A stretch of DNA of 64,000 nucleotides from an uncultured Christensenella sp. (lineage in GTDB: Bacteria > Bacillota > Clostridia > Christensenellales > UBA1242), in contig CAYTNS010000002.1 of assembly GCA_964439345.1 (NCBI GenBank), positions 26,797-90,796 on the forward strand. The letters run 5' to 3'. Each line of letters opens with the position of its first letter. Position 1 is the first letter of the stretch. The notes beneath the pieces were generated by a model, which saw nothing but the letters and a program-made list of their open reading frames with translations, made no database searches and had not been told where the DNA came from. A program made the translations under genes and the position numbers. Positions 1 through 10,354 of the stretch are shown piece after piece.

Positions 1-2035
1 CTGCCTCTTTTTCACGATAGTAATCAAATACATTTTTGATAGTATTAACATCACAAACACCGGCTAGATTACCTAGAGTATTTGCCCCTGCCTGAGCCTC
101 AATAGCACCTATAAATTCCTCAGCGCTCTTTCCACTCTTTTTAAAGCCATCATATAGTTCAGCAACGAAATTATTGCCTTCCTCTAACATTGTGATTGCT
201 CTATCCTGCATAGCATAAGCTTCCATAGCACTCTCAAATGTCATATTATTTGGTAGTGCAACACCTAGCGAATAAGGGCCTACATCGGGAAGCATATCCA
301 CTTTAGCTACATGTTGTGCACCGTTTGAAGGTTCTTTTGGCTCATTTTGAGTTTCTTCTTTTTCAGCCTCTTCTTCTGGCTCTTCTTGCCCGGCAGTCTT
401 TTCCATCTCGCCCGACATAAATTTACTGAAATCTTCTTTTGTAAGCCAAGCCTCACCCTTGTCATCTACTAGGTCATCATTTAATATGAGTTCGCCATTT
501 TCAAATGAAATATGTTTTGCTAGTTCCTCATAGAATCGTTTGGAATTTAATTCGCCATTTAGTACATGAGGACATCTCATTTGAGCAGTCTTATTCTCTT
601 TTAGCGATTCATTAACTAAAGAATGTAATGCCTGATATTGAGTAAGCAATTCATTTTTCTTTTGCAATTCTGCTATGGACTTAGATAAACTAGCTGGAAT
701 TGCTTGTCTAGATTGCGTATAAAGGTTTGCTCTCTCCTGCAAAGAAGTAAGCATACCTTGATATTTATCACTTATAGCCTGTGCAGCATTTTCATTGGCA
801 TCAGCTAAATCTTGAGCCCTATCTACTACACTCTCGTGATAAGCCTCTATTTTGCCTACTCTTCTACGATTCATAAGAGTATTAGAAGCATCAGATGTTA
901 GCATTCCTGCATAATCTGGTACTTTTCTTAAATTGACAAATCCTCCCCTCTCCAATTCAGTGACATTTGCCTTAGCAACACTAGCAATTCTTAAATCATC
1001 AAGGAATAAATCTGGATTTCTAGACATATTGTAGGCTTCCCATTCTGGGGAATCTACACTAAATTGCCTTTGAGCTCTAAGCAATACTTCCTTATCCAAT
1101 CTTCTTTTTGAGGTATTGCCAATCAATTCTTTTTCTACAAAGTATGTAAATAGTCCCTTAGGAGTAATTGTTTGTGCTTTTTTAGTTTCAATCGCCGATT
1201 TTATTGATTCAATTTTCTTTTGTTGCTTAGCAATATCGCTCTCCGATGGAGCATACATTCCACCAGCCTTTAGGTTATCCCTCATATTGCCTAAGATTTC
1301 TTCGGCTTCGGCTAGTTCCCTTTCTTCCTTTTCGTAAGAAACGCCACCAGTACGAATGTAATTATTTATAAATGATGTAGTCGCCTCACGCGAAATTCTA
1401 GCATATTGAACTACACCACTAGCATCTTTGTATGGTAATCCACCATTAGGAACTTCCTTTACCTCAAAAGTGCCATCGGCTTTTTTAGTAATATCCATTC
1501 CCATATAGGCAAATGCCGATAACAAATCTTCATTTGGGTCTTTACTTATAGAAGGCTCAGGGACTTCGCTCTTTTTTACATCTTCATTAGCAAATGTAGC
1601 CATATGAAGAGCACTAGCCATTTTATCGAACCCTCTAAGGCCTTTTAACCAATCTTGATATTCGGCATTAAGGGAATTGTGTTCACCTTTTATACTCTTA
1701 AATTTAGATAGGTGCAAATCAAAAGACCTGATTAAATCGTCGTACGCTCTAGCTTGTGCTAGGTCTCCACCCATCGCTTTAAATCTTTCTATAGCTGATT
1801 CACTTGGGTGGGTAAGTCCTTTTAACCCATCAAAGATATTACGGTCTTCACCTGTTAACTGGTCTCCAACAGACTCATAGTGCAAATTAAGTCCACCCAT
1901 TATTGATTCTATCGTGTTACCACGAGCAGACATAATTTTATCGACCGATTCTTTTAGTTTATCTTTAGCCTTAACAAAAGCACCAGCCTTTTTTACTGAG
2001 GAGATATCTGCCATTTCTTCAAATATTTGTGCCAT
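1..2035 (-). CDS. Large hypothetical protein, truncated by the window edge (678 codons visible); last visible gene of the T4SS-like cluster
   Basis: Absent from the ORF track because its stop lies left of position 1. Manual minus-strand translation from the ATG at 2035-2033 (MAQIFEEMADISSVKKAGAFVKAKDKLKES...) met no stop down to position 1. An AGGAAGGA RBS sits at 2043-2050, 7 nt upstream. An acidic E-rich patch occurs near nt 330-420. No TM segment, signal peptide or catalytic motif was recognised. Confidence 0.7.
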   Translation of the reverse strand, partial: MAQIFEEMADISSVKKAGAFVKAKDKLKESVDKIMSARGNTIESIMGGLNLHYESVGDQLTGEDRNIFDGLKGLTHPSESAIERFKAMGGDLAQARAYDDLIRSFDLHLSKFKSIKGEHNSLNAEYQDWLKGLRGFDKMASALHMATFANEDVKKSEVPEPSISKDPNEDLLSAFAYMGMDITKKADGTFEVKEVPNGGLPYKDASGVVQYARISREATTSFINNYIRTGGVSYEKEERELAEAEEILGNMRDNLKAGGMYAPSESDIAKQQKKIESIKSAIETKKAQTITPKGLFTYFVEKELIGNTSKRRLDKEVLLRAQRQFSVDSPEWEAYNMSRNPDLFLDDLRIASVAKANVTELERGGFVNLRKVPDYAGMLTSDASNTLMNRRRVGKIEAYHESVVDRAQDLADANENAAQAISDKYQGMLTSLQERANLYTQSRQAIPASLSKSIAELQKKNELLTQYQALHSLVNESLKENKTAQMRCPHVLNGELNSKRFYEELAKHISFENGELILNDDLVDDKGEAWLTKEDFSKFMSGEMEKTAGQEEPEEEAEKEETQNEPKEPSNGAQHVAKVDMLPDVGPYSLGVALPNNMTFESAMEAYAMQDRAITMLEEGNNFVAELYDGFKKSGKSAEEFIGAIEAQAGANTLGNLAGVCDVNTIKNVFDYYREKEA

Positions 2036-2112
2036 AATATTATCCTTCCTAATTGTATATTTGTATTAGTAATCTAAAATGTTATAGCAAAATGTAATCT
2101 TAATACACTTAT

Positions 2113-2141
2113 ATTATATCATAAATACTACGCATTTTCAA
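2113..2141 (-). promoter_or_regulatory. Sigma-70-type promoter for the edge-truncated gene
   Basis: The minus strand reads TTGAAA (2141-2136), a 17-nt spacer, then TATAAT (2118-2113), inside the 129-bp gap after the 1645-aa gene. Confidence 0.5.
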
Positions 2142-2164
2142 GACCTACATTTTGCTAAAAACAC

Positions 2165-5100
2165 CTAAAATACTATTTGCTCCGACTTCTTCCTATCAAA
2201 GAACTTTATAAACATATCTTTGATATTAGATACGGCAGATTTGTAGAAACTATCACTATTTAATTTAGCATAAACATCTTCTACCGTTTTTGCACTCTTT
2301 AGCCCTTCTAAAACGGTCGATATGGTCTCACCTAATTCTAGATAAGTGCCATCATCGGAAAGGGTGGAGAATTGCATAATTAGGTTTACGCCCAATTCCT
2401 CCGAACTTAAGTCCAAAGCAACATCTTTTATATCTTTGGCAATTTCACCTAGGTGCTGAGTATTTTTAAGTTCATTTATAATGTAATCAAATGAATCGGT
2501 CTCCTCGCCCCTATTCATAATGGTTCTGAATATATATTGCTGTAATAATCCCTTGATATTACATCTAATAGTCTGTCCAATAGGCAATTTAATCTCAAAT
2601 GTACTTACATCTGCATCTTCACTGATATTTCCCACAATATCTAGTGCCTCTGCAATCCCCTTCATATCTTCTTTTAGCAGTACATCATCTTTGCTATCTA
2701 GCGCCTCGTAGAATCCCTGCCTAATTCCAGCATAGATGATATCTATATTGTGCACATCTGCACCTACTGATTTATCACTATAATGTTTTTCCTCAGGAGC
2801 ATCTACAAAGTCTACATTGTCTCTAGAATTTTCATCTACAACTATATCTAATTCAAAGTATCTAGCAGTCTCAATCTCGTAACCACTTAGTCTAGCACTA
2901 TCCTTTATCTTATCTATTAGATAGGTTCTCATATTTTTCTTGACTTCGTCAAATTCTTTGATAAATTCCTTAGTTGCAATCCTTTCATCTTTCTCAAATT
3001 CTGACATCATTTGAGTTAGAGCATAGAATCTAAACGAATTCATATACACATTAATCATCTTTCTAGGACTAGTAAGCTCGGGGTGAACTTCGCTATTATC
3101 TTCCGATTTGGCTATAAAATCGCCCTCAAGTTTATCTATAGCTGACCTCTTTTCCTCAGGATATCTAGATTCAAAATCAGATATCATATCTATTTCTTCT
3201 ACTATGTATAGCATCTTATTGGCATATATTAGATACTGCTTGTCCAATTTTTCCACAAAGTCTTCGTATCTATCCACCCTCTGGGTCATAATGCTCCTAA
3301 TAACCGATGTTATCATACTAATAGTATTCTCATCTAAGCCCTTGAAGAAATTATTGATTTTCTGCAAACTAAGCATATTATTATCATAAAAATCTTCTTT
3401 TAATTTGGTCTTATTAGGGTCAATGCCGTACTTTTTGCCAAATGCCAATTGCAAAGCATACTCTTTGGCTTTTTCCTTGCTGACTAAGAATCTTTTCCTT
3501 AAGAACCAAGTATCGTCCTCATAATCTGATGGTTGCATATCGTCACTAACTACGATATTTTCTGTTACTTTGCTATCTACCTTTTTAGTAGCACTAGCAT
3601 TGTAATCTAGCCTCAAGGCATCTACCATATTCTCCATAAATTTCACCCCACCCTTTAGTGGATTTGGCTTAATTCTTAGGAGAATTTTATTATTAGCACC
3701 ATTGAATGGATATAATGTTCCGAATAGATTGGTTACATCATTATCCAATTCATCAAATAATGCACTATTTCTCTTAGTAAGTAATAAATTTTGTTCGTAA
3801 GATAATGTTCTACCCAACCTTAATATCTCATCGGCTAATTCCTTTTGACCGAAGTACACATTCCTAGGATAAGAGGTTAATCCTCCATCGGTAGAATCGT
3901 TTTTATCAATAATAACATTTTGAGCTGAAATTGAGAAACTCAAATAGTCTAGCATTCTAGAGTAGATGGCATCACTATCTAGTTGTACCATAGGCAATTC
4001 TTTCGACTCTAATTTGCCTATAAGTGTATCAACATAATTTTGCTTCATCTTGCCCGAATACTTCTCGTAATTTCTAGCAGTTTGGGTATCTCCTGTAATA
4101 ATCTTGGCTAGACTGCCTAGCATATTAAGAGCGACCTCTAGTCCATCTCTGATACTCTCTGGCAACCCACTATCAATATCACCATTGATTCTATTTTCAA
4201 TAATTATCTTTAATAGGTCAAAATCAATGCTACCCATTATCTCATCAAAATCTGATGCCACTAGCGAACTAGCAGTCTTATCTATATGCCTCTCTAGTGC
4301 TGGGGCTATATTTTTATTTAGATCAATGCTAGATATTACACTATCGTCTACTGTTACATTTGACCTACCAAGGCTTACCTTTAATGCACGGCACTTTAGG
4401 TCGGAGATAATATCATCGGCTGTAGCCTTTGCCTCAATTTTACCCGTAATATACGCATTTAGTAGGTTCCCCTTGGTCTCTACTAGGTAACTATATCTTT
4501 CGTAAGTAGCGAATGCCTCTAGGCTATTGCCATATACATTCACACCATCTTTTTGATAAGCCACTAGATATGGGATAATAGATGGCTCTACCCCACCCAT
4601 ATCATTATCTGGCATATTTACATAGTTTGTATCAACTGGGAATATATCAATATTACTTGCCTTTTGCGATGGGGTCTCTTCCTCGTTAGTAGTGGTCTCA
4701 TCATCAATATCAAGAGAATCAATATCGGTAGTCTCCGTCTCCCCCTCATAACCTAGCATTTGAGAGAATATATCATCACCCTTAGCTGGAGCATCGGCTT
4801 TGGTAAAGGTAATATCTGCCTCGGGATTTTCCTCCTCAGCAGTAGTAAATACTACACCCTTTCTCCTCTCCAATTCCCTCTTTTTATCTTCCAAAAGCAA
4901 TTCAATTAATTCTCTGGTCAAATCATTATCTAAGCCCAATGAATTAGTATTACTGCCTTGTGGATAAACAGGGGTCGTTTGTGGATTTGCCACTTGTGGA
5001 TTCTGAACTTCTACTACATTAGGAGTTGCCACATTTTGCATAGGAGCTACTTGAGCACCACTAGCATTAGGAGTAGTAGCACTTAGTGCAGATAGATTAT

Positions 5101-7102
5101 CGGCAATTTTTTCTAGAACCTCGGGATTAATCTCCTTAGTTAGCTTAACTCCATTTGTAGGCTCAACTGTATCTGTAGCCCTAGAAGCATCTAATTTTCT
5201 TAGTTTCTTTTCGTAATCTTTTTGGACTTTTAATTTCTTTAATTCTCCCCTAATATCGCCAAAATCGCCATTAATTTCGTTTACAAGTTCGGCTTTGGAT
5301 TCTGATTTTTGCTCAGTCTTAGGGGTTTTATTTATATCCTCTGCGTGGGCATCTTGAGAATACTGCTCACTGCATAATTTCTCAATTTCTTTGTCTATCT
5401 CGATTAAAGTATATTGCTTTTTGATAGCCTTTTTATCTTCCACACCATTTAATTCTATCTTGCCTTTCTCAATCTTTAGGGTTGGCTCTACTACCTTAGA
5501 TAATGTCGCCTTAATAGAATTTACGATTTCCTCGGCAGGAATAGGTTTTTTAAGAAGTTTTGCCCTCTCCTTTTTAAGAGCTATATCGGTATCTAATAGA
5601 GTATCATAGTACTTAGATAAGCATAGTACACGCCTAAATTTATTCCTGCTGGATAAAAAGTCACTATTAGCCTTTTTGTACTCTTCCGAATTTAATTTAT
5701 CTTGAACTTTTTCTAGTTGCTTTTGATAAAATTTAATCTCTTTGGAATTATCAGCTGTGGTGTCTTTAGAAAGCCTAGCAATCTGACTCTCGTAGTCATT
5801 CTTCTTCTCTAAATATCCACCCCTTTGCTCGTCTAGAACTCTATGAATTTTACTCTTCTTCATATAATCCACAGCTAGTTCGTCGGTTACTTCACCCCTG
5901 TAGGATTTAAGCTCTTGCAAAGTGCTATGTAGTGCACTAATAGCTCTAAAGGATATATCTTCTAGCCCCTCTAGATACTTAGCCTCATCACCCAATTCAT
6001 TTAGGTCTACATCTAAGCCAAAATCTTTGGAGACATTTCCAGCCTTATAGTCAGGATTATTTATCTGCTCCTCACTTAGTACCCCGTTATCATTGACAAC
6101 ACCCGATAGCGATGAGCCTATAACCATCTTTTTGGCTAGTTCATTGTGAGTAACTTTATTTGTCTTTTTCTCTTCCTCTGGCTCGTGCTCTTTTTTGAAA
6201 GTCTGCCATTTTTTTGAGTGCCTACTGTAATTTTTGATTACATTCTTAAAGTACACAGTTGGGTCTTTGAAAGTTAGTGCCGAACCGAATAATTTCTTTA
6301 AGTCCTCCACACTGGCTGTAGATATGCCTAGGCTCTCCTCTGCTTCTCTAATATAATCGGCAAAGACCTGACTGGCTGTAATAAACTTTCTAGATTCAAT
6401 TGGCTTATTCAAAAATTCATTTATGTACTTATTGCAGGTCTTTTTAGATAAAGCAAAAGATTTCTCCGATTTACCCACAAAGTACTTAATGCCATTGCCA
6501 TTCCTATTTTTTACAATGCTATATGTGCCTAGGTCGTCTTTCTCGATAGTAACACCAACATAATTAAGAGCATTCACTATATCCCTATCCTGCTCGTCCT
6601 TACTTTTCTTGCCCTTAGTAGTAGACTTTTCTTCATCAGATGGCATTATAGCGCCCTCTATATCAGAGGCAGTGTGCAAGTCAATATGGCTAAGAGTTTC
6701 CTTGGTATTTAGAATTGGCAAATATTTCTTAAGAGCCTCGTTATAAGCCTCTACCTTCTTTATCTCAATAGACGCATCTTTGCCGTCAGATAGTAGAGAA
6801 GAAATAGTGTGTAGTAGATTGCCTCTCCTATTTAGAATTTTAACCACTAGCCTAATATCCTTAGGTAGCATACCCGTCATATATTTTAGCTCGGTTGGCA
6901 AAATTCTGTACGACCTATCTACGTTTTCTGGCTCGGCAGTTTTATCCGATTTTTTCTTCTTATCGTAATTTTTTATGTAATTCTTAATAAGCAAAAGAAG
7001 CCTATCCTTATCGGTAGGCCACGAAAACCAAGTATGTGAAAATAATTCACACCCTTTTTTACTTATTTTTTTTACTTCCATTTTTCTATTTTTTATAACC
7101 AC
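2165..7102 (-). CDS. Giant hypothetical protein (1645 aa), soluble, function unknown
   Basis: Uninterrupted ORF with a GTG start at 7102 and a GGAG RBS 6 nt upstream. The N-terminal half is K/E-rich and coiled-coil-like. A Q/P/N/V-rich stretch then a D/E/T-rich linker is encoded around nt 4660-5100. No Walker A, HExxH, relaxase His-triad, LPXTG, TM or signal peptide was seen by eye. Confidence 0.85.
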   Translation of the reverse strand: MVIKNRKMEVKKISKKGCELFSHTWFSWPTDKDRLLLLIKNYIKNYDKKKKSDKTAEPENVDRSYRILPTELKYMTGMLPKDIRLVVKILNRRGNLLHTISSLLSDGKDASIEIKKVEAYNEALKKYLPILNTKETLSHIDLHTASDIEGAIMPSDEEKSTTKGKKSKDEQDRDIVNALNYVGVTIEKDDLGTYSIVKNRNGNGIKYFVGKSEKSFALSKKTCNKYINEFLNKPIESRKFITASQVFADYIREAEESLGISTASVEDLKKLFGSALTFKDPTVYFKNVIKNYSRHSKKWQTFKKEHEPEEEKKTNKVTHNELAKKMVIGSSLSGVVNDNGVLSEEQINNPDYKAGNVSKDFGLDVDLNELGDEAKYLEGLEDISFRAISALHSTLQELKSYRGEVTDELAVDYMKKSKIHRVLDEQRGGYLEKKNDYESQIARLSKDTTADNSKEIKFYQKQLEKVQDKLNSEEYKKANSDFLSSRNKFRRVLCLSKYYDTLLDTDIALKKERAKLLKKPIPAEEIVNSIKATLSKVVEPTLKIEKGKIELNGVEDKKAIKKQYTLIEIDKEIEKLCSEQYSQDAHAEDINKTPKTEQKSESKAELVNEINGDFGDIRGELKKLKVQKDYEKKLRKLDASRATDTVEPTNGVKLTKEINPEVLEKIADNLSALSATTPNASGAQVAPMQNVATPNVVEVQNPQVANPQTTPVYPQGSNTNSLGLDNDLTRELIELLLEDKKRELERRKGVVFTTAEEENPEADITFTKADAPAKGDDIFSQMLGYEGETETTDIDSLDIDDETTTNEEETPSQKASNIDIFPVDTNYVNMPDNDMGGVEPSIIPYLVAYQKDGVNVYGNSLEAFATYERYSYLVETKGNLLNAYITGKIEAKATADDIISDLKCRALKVSLGRSNVTVDDSVISSIDLNKNIAPALERHIDKTASSLVASDFDEIMGSIDFDLLKIIIENRINGDIDSGLPESIRDGLEVALNMLGSLAKIITGDTQTARNYEKYSGKMKQNYVDTLIGKLESKELPMVQLDSDAIYSRMLDYLSFSISAQNVIIDKNDSTDGGLTSYPRNVYFGQKELADEILRLGRTLSYEQNLLLTKRNSALFDELDNDVTNLFGTLYPFNGANNKILLRIKPNPLKGGVKFMENMVDALRLDYNASATKKVDSKVTENIVVSDDMQPSDYEDDTWFLRKRFLVSKEKAKEYALQLAFGKKYGIDPNKTKLKEDFYDNNMLSLQKINNFFKGLDENTISMITSVIRSIMTQRVDRYEDFVEKLDKQYLIYANKMLYIVEEIDMISDFESRYPEEKRSAIDKLEGDFIAKSEDNSEVHPELTSPRKMINVYMNSFRFYALTQMMSEFEKDERIATKEFIKEFDEVKKNMRTYLIDKIKDSARLSGYEIETARYFELDIVVDENSRDNVDFVDAPEEKHYSDKSVGADVHNIDIIYAGIRQGFYEALDSKDDVLLKEDMKGIAEALDIVGNISEDADVSTFEIKLPIGQTIRCNIKGLLQQYIFRTIMNRGEETDSFDYIINELKNTQHLGEIAKDIKDVALDLSSEELGVNLIMQFSTLSDDGTYLELGETISTVLEGLKSAKTVEDVYAKLNSDSFYKSAVSNIKDMFIKFFDRKKSEQIVF

Positions 7103-7202
7103 AGTTTTCTCCGTAAATATAACAAATCAAATTTAATATACTCCCCTATATGAGGCTAAAATTTACACCTCATATAGTAGAATATCTTTATATTCAAACT
7201 AA

Positions 7203-9890
7203 TTAATATTCAGTTTGAAGTGCTTTTAAATAATTAGGGTTATTAAATAATTCCTTAGTTGTATTAAGTGCTTCTATCTGTACAGTTGTTCTATTCATAG
7301 GACCTGTAATCAAGAAACACTGACCACGACCGGCTGTAACTATGGAGTTCTGCTCCTCCTCATTTATACCACCGGCATTTCTATATAGAGTGATAAGGTC
7401 ATTGATATCGGCTGGGGCTAGTGACATTATTATAGAATACTGACAGGCATTGATAACGGCTGTAGATTGCTGAGCAATTTCTTCCGAACCAACGAAGTCT
7501 TTGATATTCTGTGTAATGATTATTAGCATTCCACTATATTTTCTTATACGTTTAGCCATCTGCGCCATAAAGTCTAGCGCTATTGGGAATTTCTTATTGA
7601 TAAATACGTGCGCCTCATCAACTGCACATATAACTCTACGCTTATCCTCTTCGGCAGCCTGTTCACCGATGTACTTTAGGTTAAAGTCACGGTTCTTGAT
7701 AATCTCGGCATCTAGGTACTTAAATACTAGTAACATCTGCGCATTAGCGATAATATCATTTCTATTGGAAATAAGTGTACGGAAGGAGAAACATATAAAG
7801 TTCTCATTGGTTTCAACAGATGTGTAACCATTCCATAGGTTGGAGTTACGACCACCTGTACCGAATTTCTCAATAAACATTCTAACTGTCTGCAAATTTT
7901 TGTAGTGATACTCATTGGTCTCCACCTCTAGCATATCATCAACCATTTGAATTAAATCATCAAATATTGGGAAATCACTAGGCTTTAGGTCGGCAACATT
8001 GACCGTACTATCTATGCCAAATTTTCTGTAAAGAGTAGCAATCAAGGAGTTCAACATCTCAAAGGCATCGGTATTGATACCCGGTAATATCAGTCTAAAG
8101 AATTGTTCCATAAACTGCAAGTGCTCATTGAAGGCATCGGTCGATTCACCCGTTTCTGCCTCAAGGGTTGCGTAAATATGGAAAGGATTAAAGATACCAT
8201 TGGTAGAGTTACCTACGTCAATTATCTTACCACCTAGGTTGTGACAAAGTATCTCGTACTCATTCTCGGGGTCAAGAATAAATACACGGGTATTATCTGC
8301 TGCGAAATTGGTAAGCAAGGTCTTGGTACAATACGATTTACCCGAACCAGATTTACCTATAACCATCATATTACTATTAACTCTTTCATTGTTTCTAGCA
8401 AAGAAATTTGCAAATACTGGATATTGATTGTATCCAATGTAAATACCTCTATCATCGTGCAAAGTGGTAGATACAAATGGGAAACATGCAGCAAGGGAAG
8501 ATGTGTGTATTCCTCTGCCATAAGGCTTAGCTAGGGTATCTAGTCTAGAAATATTACTAGATATAAATCCATCTACTTGTCTAGCGAAGTTCTCGGCGAA
8601 TTTGAAACCATTCTGTCTAAGAACTGCCCTAACCTCTTTTTTAACGGCATCTTTGGCTACAATATGAATAGTTGTATTGTAAAGCTGCTCATTTGAACCC
8701 TTGATACCTTTCAAAAGTTCTTTTAAGGTCTCAATGTGTTGCTCAACGTCAATCTTTTCGGAGCTACGCATATTTTTCTGTTGTTTAATCTCCATCTCCA
8801 TCAAAGATTTATCTAGGTCTTTTTCGGCCCTGTATCTATCTATAGGAGATATATTAACTACTACCCTACTCTCATCTAGAGCAAATAGTGGATATGCCCA
8901 CGCATTAGGTACTTCGATAGGATAATCGGTAATGGAGAATATTCTGTATTTCTCACCATCAATTTTGGTGGTCTTTAGGTCAAATCTAACTTCATCGGGA
9001 TAAGTCCACGCAGCCTTTTCGTTTAGGGAAAGAAGTTCAATCTCTCTTTCGTCAAAGTTACTGCAATAGGTAGACTTCATAAATACATATAGCTGGTCAC
9101 CTGTAACAATCTCGGTGTAAATAGGAGTAACCGAACTTTCAAGCGTACTAACTATACCATTTACAGTATTATTAAGTGCGTCTCTATCGGTATCGTAGAT
9201 AACCATATAGTAGTGGTCCTTAATAATCTTTTCGGTATCATTCATAAATTTAATAGCCTGTAACCTTTCGTCAAATACTGGGCTACGGCTATCTAGTTCG
9301 GCTGCCGAATAGAAACCTTTTTCGTACATATCATTTAGGACATTGAATCTATAGTCCTCGTACTTAGCCATATCATCTAGTACCATTGGCTTCTTTACCT
9401 TGACAATACTACACTGCTGATTTAGGTTAAGTCTCTGAATAGCTGTAGCAAAAGCATTGATAGTCATATCCTGCTTATCTTCGGTAAGCAATCCAAATGA
9501 CATAGGATATATCTCAATTACACTACCATAGTACTCACCGAATTTTAAGAATCTATCGGTATTGATATCATCGAATGGCATAATATTTTTAATATTCTTG
9601 CTACCAGTAGCTTTCTTGGAATAATACTTATTGTATGCCATAAATTTAAAGGATAGGAATAAGGCATTGTACATTCTTAAGTTATCGCCCATCTCCAAAA
9701 ATAACATAGCATAAGCACCAGCAAAGAATAGCGCTGCATAGATATTGTACCACATCTGACTAAACATATTGGTAGTGGCAATTAGCACTGCTATAGCTAG
9801 ACCTATCAAAATAAATATAGCATCTAGGATAGTGAAATTCCTAAATATTGTTACTTTAACTTTGGTCCTTCTAGGAATAAATCTCATCAT
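7203..9890 (-). CDS. VirB4/TraE/TcpF-type conjugal-transfer ATPase with an N-terminal VirB3-like two-helix membrane module
   Basis: Walker A is MVIGKSGSGKSY and the Walker B-like motif is ICAVDEAHVF. The 895-aa size is typical of VirB4. The N-terminus (KVKVTIFRNFTILDAIFILIGLAIAVLI...YAALFFAGAYAMLFL) resembles VirB3/PrgI/TcpE-type modules. Confidence 0.85.
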   Translation of the reverse strand: MMRFIPRRTKVKVTIFRNFTILDAIFILIGLAIAVLIATTNMFSQMWYNIYAALFFAGAYAMLFLEMGDNLRMYNALFLSFKFMAYNKYYSKKATGSKNIKNIMPFDDINTDRFLKFGEYYGSVIEIYPMSFGLLTEDKQDMTINAFATAIQRLNLNQQCSIVKVKKPMVLDDMAKYEDYRFNVLNDMYEKGFYSAAELDSRSPVFDERLQAIKFMNDTEKIIKDHYYMVIYDTDRDALNNTVNGIVSTLESSVTPIYTEIVTGDQLYVFMKSTYCSNFDEREIELLSLNEKAAWTYPDEVRFDLKTTKIDGEKYRIFSITDYPIEVPNAWAYPLFALDESRVVVNISPIDRYRAEKDLDKSLMEMEIKQQKNMRSSEKIDVEQHIETLKELLKGIKGSNEQLYNTTIHIVAKDAVKKEVRAVLRQNGFKFAENFARQVDGFISSNISRLDTLAKPYGRGIHTSSLAACFPFVSTTLHDDRGIYIGYNQYPVFANFFARNNERVNSNMMVIGKSGSGKSYCTKTLLTNFAADNTRVFILDPENEYEILCHNLGGKIIDVGNSTNGIFNPFHIYATLEAETGESTDAFNEHLQFMEQFFRLILPGINTDAFEMLNSLIATLYRKFGIDSTVNVADLKPSDFPIFDDLIQMVDDMLEVETNEYHYKNLQTVRMFIEKFGTGGRNSNLWNGYTSVETNENFICFSFRTLISNRNDIIANAQMLLVFKYLDAEIIKNRDFNLKYIGEQAAEEDKRRVICAVDEAHVFINKKFPIALDFMAQMAKRIRKYSGMLIIITQNIKDFVGSEEIAQQSTAVINACQYSIIMSLAPADINDLITLYRNAGGINEEEQNSIVTAGRGQCFLITGPMNRTTVQIEALNTTKELFNNPNYLKALQTEY

Positions 9891-10097
9891 AATCGTGTAT
9901 CTCCATTTTTCACATAATACATTTGCATCTAGTTATCTGCCCTAGCGCCTATAAAAATACTACAAGCACCTAGTAATTTTAATCATCAAACTCTTCTCAT
10001 TTATTTTTTGAAAAAAGTCCACAAATAATGCAAATATACACTTATATATTTTAGTATACTATAATCGCCCAAATTAACAAAATATTTTAGCCAAATT

Positions 10098-10300
10098 ATT
10101 TATAATTTATTATAAATAAAAATGAAGCGTAATTTATAATTGTTATAAATGAAAGCAAAAGTGGCGTTTATATTTGTTATAAATAAAGCAAAAGCAATGT
10201 TTACGGCGATTAAAGATAAAAATGTTAAAGATATTTATAATTATCAAAAACAAAAATAAAGACATTGTTTGTAGTTGTTATAGAAAAAAATAAAAGTCCT
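10098..10300. repeat. About six degenerate tandem repeats of 33-34 bp, three of which have a perfect or near-perfect palindromic core
   Basis: Units start at about 10099, 10133, 10167, 10200, 10234 and 10268. The cores are ATTTATAA-ttta-TTATAAAT (10098-10117), ATTTATAA-ttg-TTATAAAT (10132-10150) and gTTTATAt-ttg-TTATAAAT (10166-10184). Each core is followed by AAAGCAAAAG-like sequence. Confidence 0.7.
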
Positions 10301-10354
10301 GCACACACGAAAATATTCTCCCTCAAAATACCTACTAACTTACCCAATTGCATA

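Follow-up and report, generated by a model that had tools for sequence, protein, structure and literature searches.

In the integrative and conjugative elements (ICEs) of mycoplasmas, the gene that follows virB4, CDS19, is large and conserved, and its product is of unknown function and essential for conjugation (PMC6030558, PMC7648426), a requirement described in M. agalactiae (PMC6030558). CDS19 evolves very fast, with 14-21% identity between ICE types, and is 1821 aa long in ICEHo-II (PMC7648426). A second relevant system is the chromosomal type IV secretion system (T4SS) of Southlakia epibionticum (SEML1_0006-0019), which has no relaxase and has been proposed to export proteins rather than DNA (PMC10633639, PMC12102498). 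It has long been asked whether Gram-positive T4SSs became dedicated protein translocators (PMC12857230). SspA-1 is exported by one Gram-positive T4SS, and protein export has been suggested for the chromosomal T4SS of Patescibacteria, which lacks a relaxase (PMC12857230, PMC10633639). Here we describe two consecutive giant genes, B and C, downstream of a virB4 gene in an uncultured Christensenella sp. (assembly GCA_964439345.1, contig CAYTNS010000002.1, positions 26,797 to 90,796 of the forward strand; this whole stretch of 64,000 nt is called the window below). We believe that the observations are best explained if B, C and a partial copy of 334 aa form a lineage-restricted, tandemly duplicated family of two-module helical proteins that works with a chromosomally fixed T4SS. 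More specifically we propose, at a probability of roughly 0.4, that B and C are non-enzymatic proteins exported by this T4SS, whether they are its cargo or a part of the machine that ends up outside the cell.

The locus resembles that of CDS19, whose NCBI family name is Mbov_0399, in that a giant protein is encoded directly after an Mbov_0397-type VirB4, in that genes for an Mbov_0395 pilin-like protein and an Mbov_0396 protein with eight transmembrane (TM) segments precede it, and in the fast evolution common to CDS19, B and C. However, CDS19 is membrane-anchored, whereas B and C are predicted to be soluble, signal-less and helical and are tandem paralogs. With the S. epibionticum system the locus shares a monoderm-type T4SS with PF18895 pilin-like genes, chromosomal fixation, the lack of a relaxase nearby and a position directly after virB4 that is taken, in S. 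epibionticum, by a protein of about 1100 aa. It differs in that the post-virB4 genes there are described as homologs of peptidases and lysozymes (PMC12102498) whereas no hydrolase signature is present in B or C, in that no VirD4 was recognised in the S. epibionticum cluster (PMC10633639) whereas one is encoded adjacently here, and in its hosts, which here are gut metagenome-assembled genomes (MAGs) labelled Clostridia or Christensenella, not Patescibacteria. B, C and their relatives have the following parts.

2165-7102, minus strand: gene B, a predicted soluble, acidic and mostly helical orphan of 1645 aa directly 3' of virB4 (open reading frame and translation)
1-2035, minus strand: gene C, first 678 aa of about 1155, a paralog of B truncated by the window edge (translation)
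5243-7021, minus strand: N module of B (aa 28-620), with a helical bundle, a sheet, a coiled-coil hairpin and a beta element (family alignment A1 and AlphaFold2 model)
6338-6610, minus strand: core of the N module (aa ~165-255), its most conserved part, a dense run of invariant B-family columns
4604-5242, minus strand: linker of B (aa 621-833), Q/P/N/V-rich then D/E/T-rich, length-variable, with no consensus in A1
2183-4603, minus strand: C module of B (aa 834-1640), predicted to be predominantly helical and multi-domain (AlphaFold2 model me9e1a6131e9a)
3614-3724, minus strand: signature motif common to the family (B aa 1127-1163), FGTLYPFNGANNKILLRIKPNPLKGGVKFMENMVDAL (BLASTP of B against C, alignment columns, and the 334-aa protein against C)
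2043-2141, minus strand: predicted internal promoter and ribosome-binding site of C, with -35 TTGAAA at 2141-2136, an extended -10 TGATATAAT ending at 2113, and AGGAAGGA at 2050-2043
Outside the window: third partial copy, 334-350 aa, at 17579-18583 of the related locus L001 and 18746-19780 of L002, and also in L005 and L006

An earlier note, made from the letters of this DNA alone, had reported two giant, hydrophilic, K/E-rich reading frames following a VirB4 ATPase, free of recognisable motifs, TM segments and signal peptides, and our analysis bears out this description. Both genes lie on the minus strand, like every gene in the first 16 kb of the window, and B starts 101 nt after the VirB4 stop codon. 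Lysine and glutamate together make up 19.4% of B and 18.8% of C, and both proteins are acidic (isoelectric points (pI) 5.1 and 4.8). The highest Kyte-Doolittle value over 19 residues is 0.94 in B and 0.88 in C against a TM threshold of 1.6, and the hydropathy scan found no TM segment, signal peptide or N-terminal hydrophobic stretch in either protein. The part of C within the window holds the N module, a short acidic linker (aa ~540-575) and the beginning of the C module; the full-length ortholog in L001, where the B protein is 92% identical, has 1155 aa and likewise contains no segment above 1.6. A motif scan of B gave zero matches to Walker A, HExxH, HxH and CxxC patterns, and HxH is also missing from the window part of C. 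A single Walker-A-like string in C, GFKKSGKS at aa 630, is kept in the closest relatives only; we reject it as a real P-loop and regard it as a chance match, given that it is not conserved beyond them.

The start codon of B is GTG at 7102. The stretch GGAGAAAACTGTGGTTATAAAAAAT (GGAG-N6-GTG-GTT-ATA-AAA-AAT) at this site is without variation across four loci, and because it and the first residues are conserved in them we identify this GTG as the real start of B; the public gene model (P0001, 1638 aa) uses an internal ATG seven codons too late (7081-7102 region). C starts with ATG at 2035, with the ribosome-binding site AGGAAGGA in front. The near-consensus promoter that the earlier note had placed before C was recovered by a consensus scan as TTGAAA-17-TATAAT with an upstream TG (2141-2113, minus strand). 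Shuffled sequence contains as many promoter-like sites as this region, so the site alone means little. Five loci, however, have kept the -35 hexamer, the greater part of the extended -10 and the ribosome-binding site within intergenic DNA that has otherwise diverged, and we conclude from this conservation that C has a promoter of its own.

The relationship between B and C is visible to BLASTP as three weak colinear matches and becomes clear in profile comparisons. When 34 B homologs were aligned with 17 C orthologs (hhalign), the probability was 98.7% with an E-value of 4e-16, and a lower alignment threshold extended this match from end to end, pairing B 19-1628 with C 21-1138 (E 8e-20; probabilities 98.7-99.2%). 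Module by module, N matched N at E 4.5e-17 and C matched C at E 1.3e-9, while the N-versus-C cross comparisons, which served as negative control, stayed at 0.1-0.2% probability. These alignments identify B and C as ancient end-to-end paralogs. The best-aligned stretch between the two families is the N-module core, with the consensus ...QD.DIV.AL.YVG....D..G.Y......NG.GI.Y...K.F.LS......F...FLN.P...RK..T...VF..YI. Within B, hhalign found no similarity between the N and the C module, and there is therefore no internal duplication in this protein. A third, partial copy of 334 aa follows C in the closer subclade and shares 34% identity with C over C aa 607-891 (E 8e-43). No open reading frame of this size was found after C in species that are more distant. 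The signature core that B, C and the 334-aa copy have in common is K-x-x-K-P-[YFN]-x-x-K-x-G-x-K-F, and the residues that are invariant in the C family, as well as the motifs common with B, are Gly, aromatic, Pro and Lys, not catalytic in type. Families of effectors and surface proteins often show tandem duplication and partial re-duplication.

The genes upstream of B encode the parts of a secretion machine.

7203-9890, minus strand: VirB4 ATPase of Mycoplasma-ICE type (NF045975, Mbov_0397, 614 bits against a cut-off of 590, full length; Pfam P-loop_TraG and DUF87)
10471-13122, minus strand: VirB6-like polytopic protein (NF045848, MMCAP2_0566, 120 bits against 90; NF045889, Mbov_0396, 85 bits against 70)
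13700-14014, minus strand: pilin-like protein (NF045849, Mbov_0395 family, 45 bits against a cut-off of 40; PF18895)
15886-16215, minus strand: second pilin-like protein (PF18895 E 6.9e-5; NF045849 33.5 bits, below the cut-off of 40)
16621-18690, plus strand, divergent: VirD4-type coupling protein (PF02534 E 1.7e-54; NF045973, CD1115 family, 307 bits against a cut-off of 250)

VirB4, an eight-TM VirB6-like protein, a pilin/VirB3-like protein and a VirD4 coupling protein are thus all encoded, each above its NCBIfam cut-off, in keeping with the parts described for T4SSs of the MICE type (MPF-FATA; PMC12857230). With the Mbov_0395, Mbov_0396 and Mbov_0397 models all passing their cut-offs, we assign the system to the Mycoplasma-ICE type; its nearest VirB4 relatives in the plasmid collection, from Mesomycoplasma and Spiroplasma, are 24-30% identical. 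The VirB4 protein has an N-terminal hydrophobic hairpin (aa ~11-65), possibly a fused VirB3-like membrane anchor. The VirB6-like protein (883 aa) has its eight TM segments in aa 1-386, followed by an A/K/E-rich hydrophilic tail of ~480 aa that showed no similarity to B or C in hhalign. Of the related loci, 14 extend far enough upstream to cover the coupling-protein gene; every one of them encodes it, with 73-92% identity.

This cluster is a fixture of the chromosome. In 19 of 19 loci the order is pilin-like genes, VirB6-like gene, virB4, B, C, in some a gene of ~340 aa, then a gene of ~81 aa, a TM2-domain gene of ~156 aa and mnmA; B and C thus follow virB4 and the cluster lies upstream of mnmA in every case, and it stands beside tmk wherever the loci extend that far. 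VirB4 identity follows mnmA identity (94 versus 92%, and about 80 versus 80%). No relaxase or integrase was found among the scanned open reading frames of the window or the called genes of the related loci, and no transposase among the former; the remainder of the window is housekeeping (tmk, a P-type ATPase gene, nrdD, pheST, argS, uppS, genes for teichoic-acid-type transferases, folD, sufBD, pfk, dnaE and whiA). Because the mnmA context is fixed, VirB4 and mnmA track each other in identity and the coupling protein is retained, the gene comparisons indicate a vertically inherited chromosomal T4SS, not a mobile element. Carriage by a mobile element with a DDE transposase (CDS22) and variable insertion sites is ruled out by the fixed mnmA site, the VirB4-mnmA tracking and the lack of a transposase or integrase among the scanned open reading frames of the window. 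The earlier note had spoken of a transfer operon, and that idea holds in part: its T4SS membership is confirmed by the neighbouring VirB4, VirB6-like, pilin-like and VirD4 genes, whereas its implied role in the transfer of a mobile element gives way to a vertically inherited chromosomal locus. The paralogy of B and C, the Mycoplasma-ICE type and the vertical inheritance are additions to what that note contained.

B, C and the 334-aa copy match no described family. Scans of these proteins and of divergent orthologs against Pfam, NCBIfam, PHROGs and PADLOC returned no match, so that the family is not accounted for by well-known T4SS accessory domains. A word-indexed search recovered 36 full-length B homologs with identities as low as 36%, all of them unnamed and free of Pfam domains, and its repetition with the family profile added one partial sequence and no new relatives. 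In an exhaustive search of 1.84 billion cluster representatives, a hidden Markov model (HMM) of the N module matched 11 proteins, all of the B family (three full-length clusters, the remainder fragments), and did not pick up even the C paralogs; none of the sequences looked up in the cluster tables is named. The profile of 34 B homologs found nothing among all PDB sequences (best E 0.09, which is meaningless), tblastn of B found no match in 72,556 plasmids, and in the literature we found no description of the B/C family or of a Mycoplasma-ICE-type T4SS in Clostridia. In a scan of one genome per GTDB species, the B family occurred in 14 species, all represented by gut MAGs titled Clostridia, Clostridiales or Christensenella. 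B and C make up a new family confined to one lineage, either an accessory or a substrate of a machine of known kind whose domesticated setting is unusual.

The two modules of B were modelled separately with AlphaFold2 from the B family alignment, and both models are confident. The N module (m519c1556ef00) has a predicted local distance difference test score (pLDDT) of 77.3, with 65% helix and 6% strand; it comprises a small four-stranded sheet (aa 185-216), a coiled-coil hairpin (H373-446 and H473-517) and a three-stranded beta element (aa 541-565). The C module scores 81.3. Foldseek matched neither module to anything in the PDB at E up to 1e-3 (query-relative TM-score at most 0.17), nor the N module to anything in BFVD at the same threshold, and thus offers no match that would make B ordinary. 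The top weak matches were to alpha pore-forming toxins of the XaxA/AhlC/ClyA type (E 0.6-1.1, probability 0.28-0.38, TM-score at most 0.32); we reject this candidate, which is also contradicted by the lack in B of a hydrophobic segment for a membrane-inserting head. The low-complexity linker that had been noted to divide B into two modules does so: aa 621-833 are poorly conserved and length-variable, pLDDT is low at both model edges, and the linker is probably disordered. In one related locus (L023, about position 12676; compare L009, about 2785) a CAA-to-TAA change in the B linker yields genes of 891 and 846 aa; the flanking DNA is 99% identical to that of an intact copy, and the split falls exactly between the modules. 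Either the gene has truly been split where the modules meet, or the sequence contains an error.

Both genes change fast and are nevertheless constrained. Compared with L001, the ratio of nonsynonymous to synonymous substitution rates (dN/dS) is 0.022 for VirB4, 0.072 for B, 0.25 for C and 0.27 for the VirB6-like protein; within B it is 0.047 for the N module, 0.060 for the C module and 0.19 for the linker. B keeps 62% and C 35% identity in the comparison that leaves mnmA at 92% and VirB4 at 94%; with both of the latter at about 80%, B drops to 36% and C to about 21%. These comparisons indicate that B and C evolve about five times faster than the ATPases, yet under purifying selection. The copies are intact in all loci except for the single L023 linker nonsense codon; with dN/dS well below 1 this rejects decay, and because of this integrity and the purifying selection we consider both genes functional and constrained. 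The overall divergence of the VirB6-like protein matches that of B (33-57% identity where VirB4 keeps 78-94%). Synonymous divergence from L001 across 1-14014 also varies about four-fold, from 0.20 in the pilin gene through 0.26 in virB4, 0.49 in B and 0.68 in C to 0.89 in the VirB6-like gene, a spread along the operon that points to a mosaic history or to strains having recombined their variable genes.

We favour export through the T4SS for several reasons. The coupling protein has been kept without exception, and no relaxase was found nearby. Among the products of the locus, only B and C are both large and signal-less. Their evolution resembles that of interface proteins and their duplication that of effectors, and C can be expressed from a promoter of its own. 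In particular, retention of the coupling protein in 14 of the 14 related loci that extend far enough argues that a cytoplasmic substrate is still coupled. We infer the export, its route and the site of action as follows. B and C would be synthesised in the cytoplasm with no Sec signal, picked up by VirD4, the conserved coupling protein, together with VirB4, and released through the VirB6-like channel. Outside, they would act at the cell surface or in a neighbouring cell, as cargo (effectors) or as a distal exported part of the machine; in the latter role they would take over what CDS19/Mbov_0399, a membrane-anchored surface protein, is assumed to do in mycoplasma ICEs. Contact with a partner cell could account for the roughly five-fold faster evolution of B and C relative to the ATPases, and the conserved promoter of C would make its supply independent of the machine genes.

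A known effector with a comparable design is CagA, a large helical orphan encoded within a T4SS island, which combines structured modules with a disordered variable region and evolves fast. Like effectors of the CagA type, B and C are large, signal-less, mostly helical by prediction, T4SS-encoded, fast-evolving and confined to a narrow lineage, and pair modules with a variable disordered region; unlike them, they belong to a Gram-positive-type system and are only candidates for translocation, and there is no sequence or structural similarity between CagA-type effectors and B or C. Several observations speak against export. Neither B nor C has a recognisable T4SS secretion signal, and their C-terminal tails are no more than mildly basic. 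Fast evolution is also seen in helical and coiled-coil scaffolds, which makes the rate argument unspecific for export, and the VirB6-like protein diverges as fast as B. Moreover, the higher conservation of B compared with C and its co-transcription with virB4 would be in keeping with a subunit of the machine as well.

The strongest competitor to export, which we consider possible but unlikely, is that B and C stay inside as a helical platform at the base of the T4SS, seated on VirB4, VirD4 or the VirB6-like tail, where they would position the machine or recruit its true substrate, be it DNA or protein. Such a cytoplasmic scaffold or adaptor would play a part similar to that of coiled-coil positioning proteins or of the adaptor complexes bound to the Legionella coupling protein. 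The missing signal peptide and TM segment, the strong purifying selection on the B modules (dN/dS about 0.05) and the lack of conserved catalytic residues are as expected for it, and the long, coiled-coil-like hydrophilic tail of the VirB6-like protein is a possible partner. A scaffold would fit the long coiled-coil hairpin, the multi-domain helical build and the transcription of B together with virB4, from which only a very short gap separates it in some loci, just as well as an exported protein would. However, C at 35% identity where VirB4 keeps 94% would be unusual for a subunit that fits highly conserved ATPases, and its independent conserved promoter and the gain or loss of the third partial copy look more like cargo; the T4SS cytoplasmic adaptors that we know of are small, and we know of none of comparable size.

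If B and C are indeed exported, they offer a handle on protein export by monoderm T4SSs and on the cell-cell interactions of an uncultured gut lineage. The chromosomal, relaxase-less examples discussed so far come from Patescibacteria only, and this locus adds an independent case in gut genomes labelled Clostridia, with concrete candidate substrates or exported parts: a duplicated giant family whose folds match nothing solved and which amounts to three full-length clusters in 1.84 billion. A bolder version, for which we see rather poor odds, is that a clade of uncultured mammalian-gut Clostridia domesticated a machine of the Mycoplasma-ICE type into a permanent chromosomal organelle. The machine would no longer move an element; it would deliver a fast-evolving family of giant helical proteins of new fold, namely B, C and the 334-aa copy, to the surface or the interior of neighbouring cells. 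If true, the clade would possess an effector-translocating T4SS of Gram-positive type and would live in dependence on cell contact, in parallel to Patescibacteria.

A role in processing or accompanying DNA is very unlikely. It would make B, C or both a non-canonical relaxase, a primase, a DNA-coating protein or an antirestriction protein, and the locus would still move or take up DNA. The retained VirD4 coupling protein is compatible with such a role, which would need an unrecognised protein, as no canonical relaxase is visible nearby; a homologous minimal cluster adjoins dprA in two Mesomycoplasma species and hints at DNA traffic, and an arms race against restriction in recipient cells would be in keeping with the fast evolution. 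On the other hand, B, C and divergent orthologs match no HUH, Rep_trans, TOPRIM, primase, ArdC, SNF2 or methylase profile, B and C contain no HxH, HExxH or conserved P-loop, the pI of 4.8-5.1 is unfavourable for coating DNA, the predominantly helical models with only two small sheets in the N module have no beta-rich or Rossmann-type core, and the residues conserved between the paralogs are structural in type. More generally, enzymatic readings are unsupported because the helical models, the acidic pI and these structural-type residues fit them poorly. The enzymatic options named in the earlier note (primase, antirestriction enzyme, non-canonical relaxase, SNF2, methylase and NlpC/P60) are accordingly not upheld: there is no profile match, no room for an alpha/beta core in the models and no catalytic type among the conserved residues. 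The list of that note is thereby narrowed to a translocated effector and a structural scaffold.

Three specific candidates were rejected along the same lines. A conjugative relaxase (MOB, HUH or Rep_trans) is contradicted by the lack of HxH and of any Pfam or NCBIfam match and by the predominantly helical models. For a VirB1-like hydrolase (PrgK, CwlT, TcpG), Pfam shows none of the expected domains (SLT/lysozyme, CHAP, NlpC/P60 or glucosaminidase) in B, in C or in their divergent orthologs; B and C also lack the signal or TM segment that such proteins usually have, and Foldseek found no PDB match for either module of B although such folds are abundant there. The polyvalent proteins of conjugative elements and phages, said to have been described by Iyer et al. 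in 2017, are reportedly mosaics of enzymatic and LPD domains; they resemble B and C in being giant, multi-module and encoded in transfer operons, and are thought to be delivered to the recipient cell, but this candidate too was rejected since B and C match no Pfam family at E up to 0.01-0.05.

That B and C are diverged equivalents of CDS19 is the least probable of the readings and verges on the implausible: the shared position after the Mbov_0395-0396-0397 series, the similar size class (1210-1356 aa in the Mesomycoplasma loci and 1821 aa in ICEHo-II; PMC7648426) and the fast evolution (PMC7648426) and essential role in transfer (PMC6030558) of CDS19 itself stand against the failure of the Mbov_0399 NCBIfam model, BLASTP and hhalign to match B or C, and against a membrane topology that B and C do not share. 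The NCBIfam model had no match to B or C at E up to 0.1, nor at E up to 1 for 17 C-family members; comparisons of B and C with the two Mbov_0399 proteins that were read from Mesomycoplasma chromosomes (M. hyopneumoniae and M. hyorhinis) gave BLASTP E-values above 0.6 and hhalign probabilities of at most 0.8%. Both of these proteins (2 of 2) end in a C-terminal hydrophobic membrane anchor, and the M. hyopneumoniae one begins with a signal-like hydrophobic N-terminus, features that B and C lack. On these grounds of missing profile, BLASTP and hhalign similarity and of differing topology we reject homology of B with CDS19; B fills the CDS19 slot but, by sequence comparison, lies outside the Mbov_0399 family. 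The slot after VirB4 can thus hold an unrelated protein of a topology different from that of CDS19, which bears on the role of the slot.

The two Mesomycoplasma chromosomes carry a minimal cluster of dprA, Mbov_0395, Mbov_0396, Mbov_0397 and Mbov_0399 amid housekeeping genes (M. hyopneumoniae, L019 9251-18119; M. hyorhinis, L021 6486-15652), with no other ICE genes within about 10 kb. Apparently these clusters are another domesticated copy of the machine, beside a DNA-uptake gene.

Two smaller features set the window and its close relative L001 apart. An AAA_14/DUF4143 gene (14162-15508, minus strand), which corresponds to the PADLOC candidate defence system PDC-S01 (E 1e-153), lies between the two pilin-like genes in both and is absent from L002 and L015; its presence in only the window and L001 points to a recent insertion into the T4SS cluster. 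The spacer between virB4 and B (7103-7202) contains a 64-nt insert with a perfect 10-bp hairpin, CTATATGAGG...CCTCATATAG at 7146-7177 on the minus strand, and its RNA has a minimum free energy of -24.6 kcal/mol (z -3.7). The hairpin occurs in the window and L001 only, with the same stems and different loops, and could be an attenuator or a transcript-stabilising element between virB4 and B.

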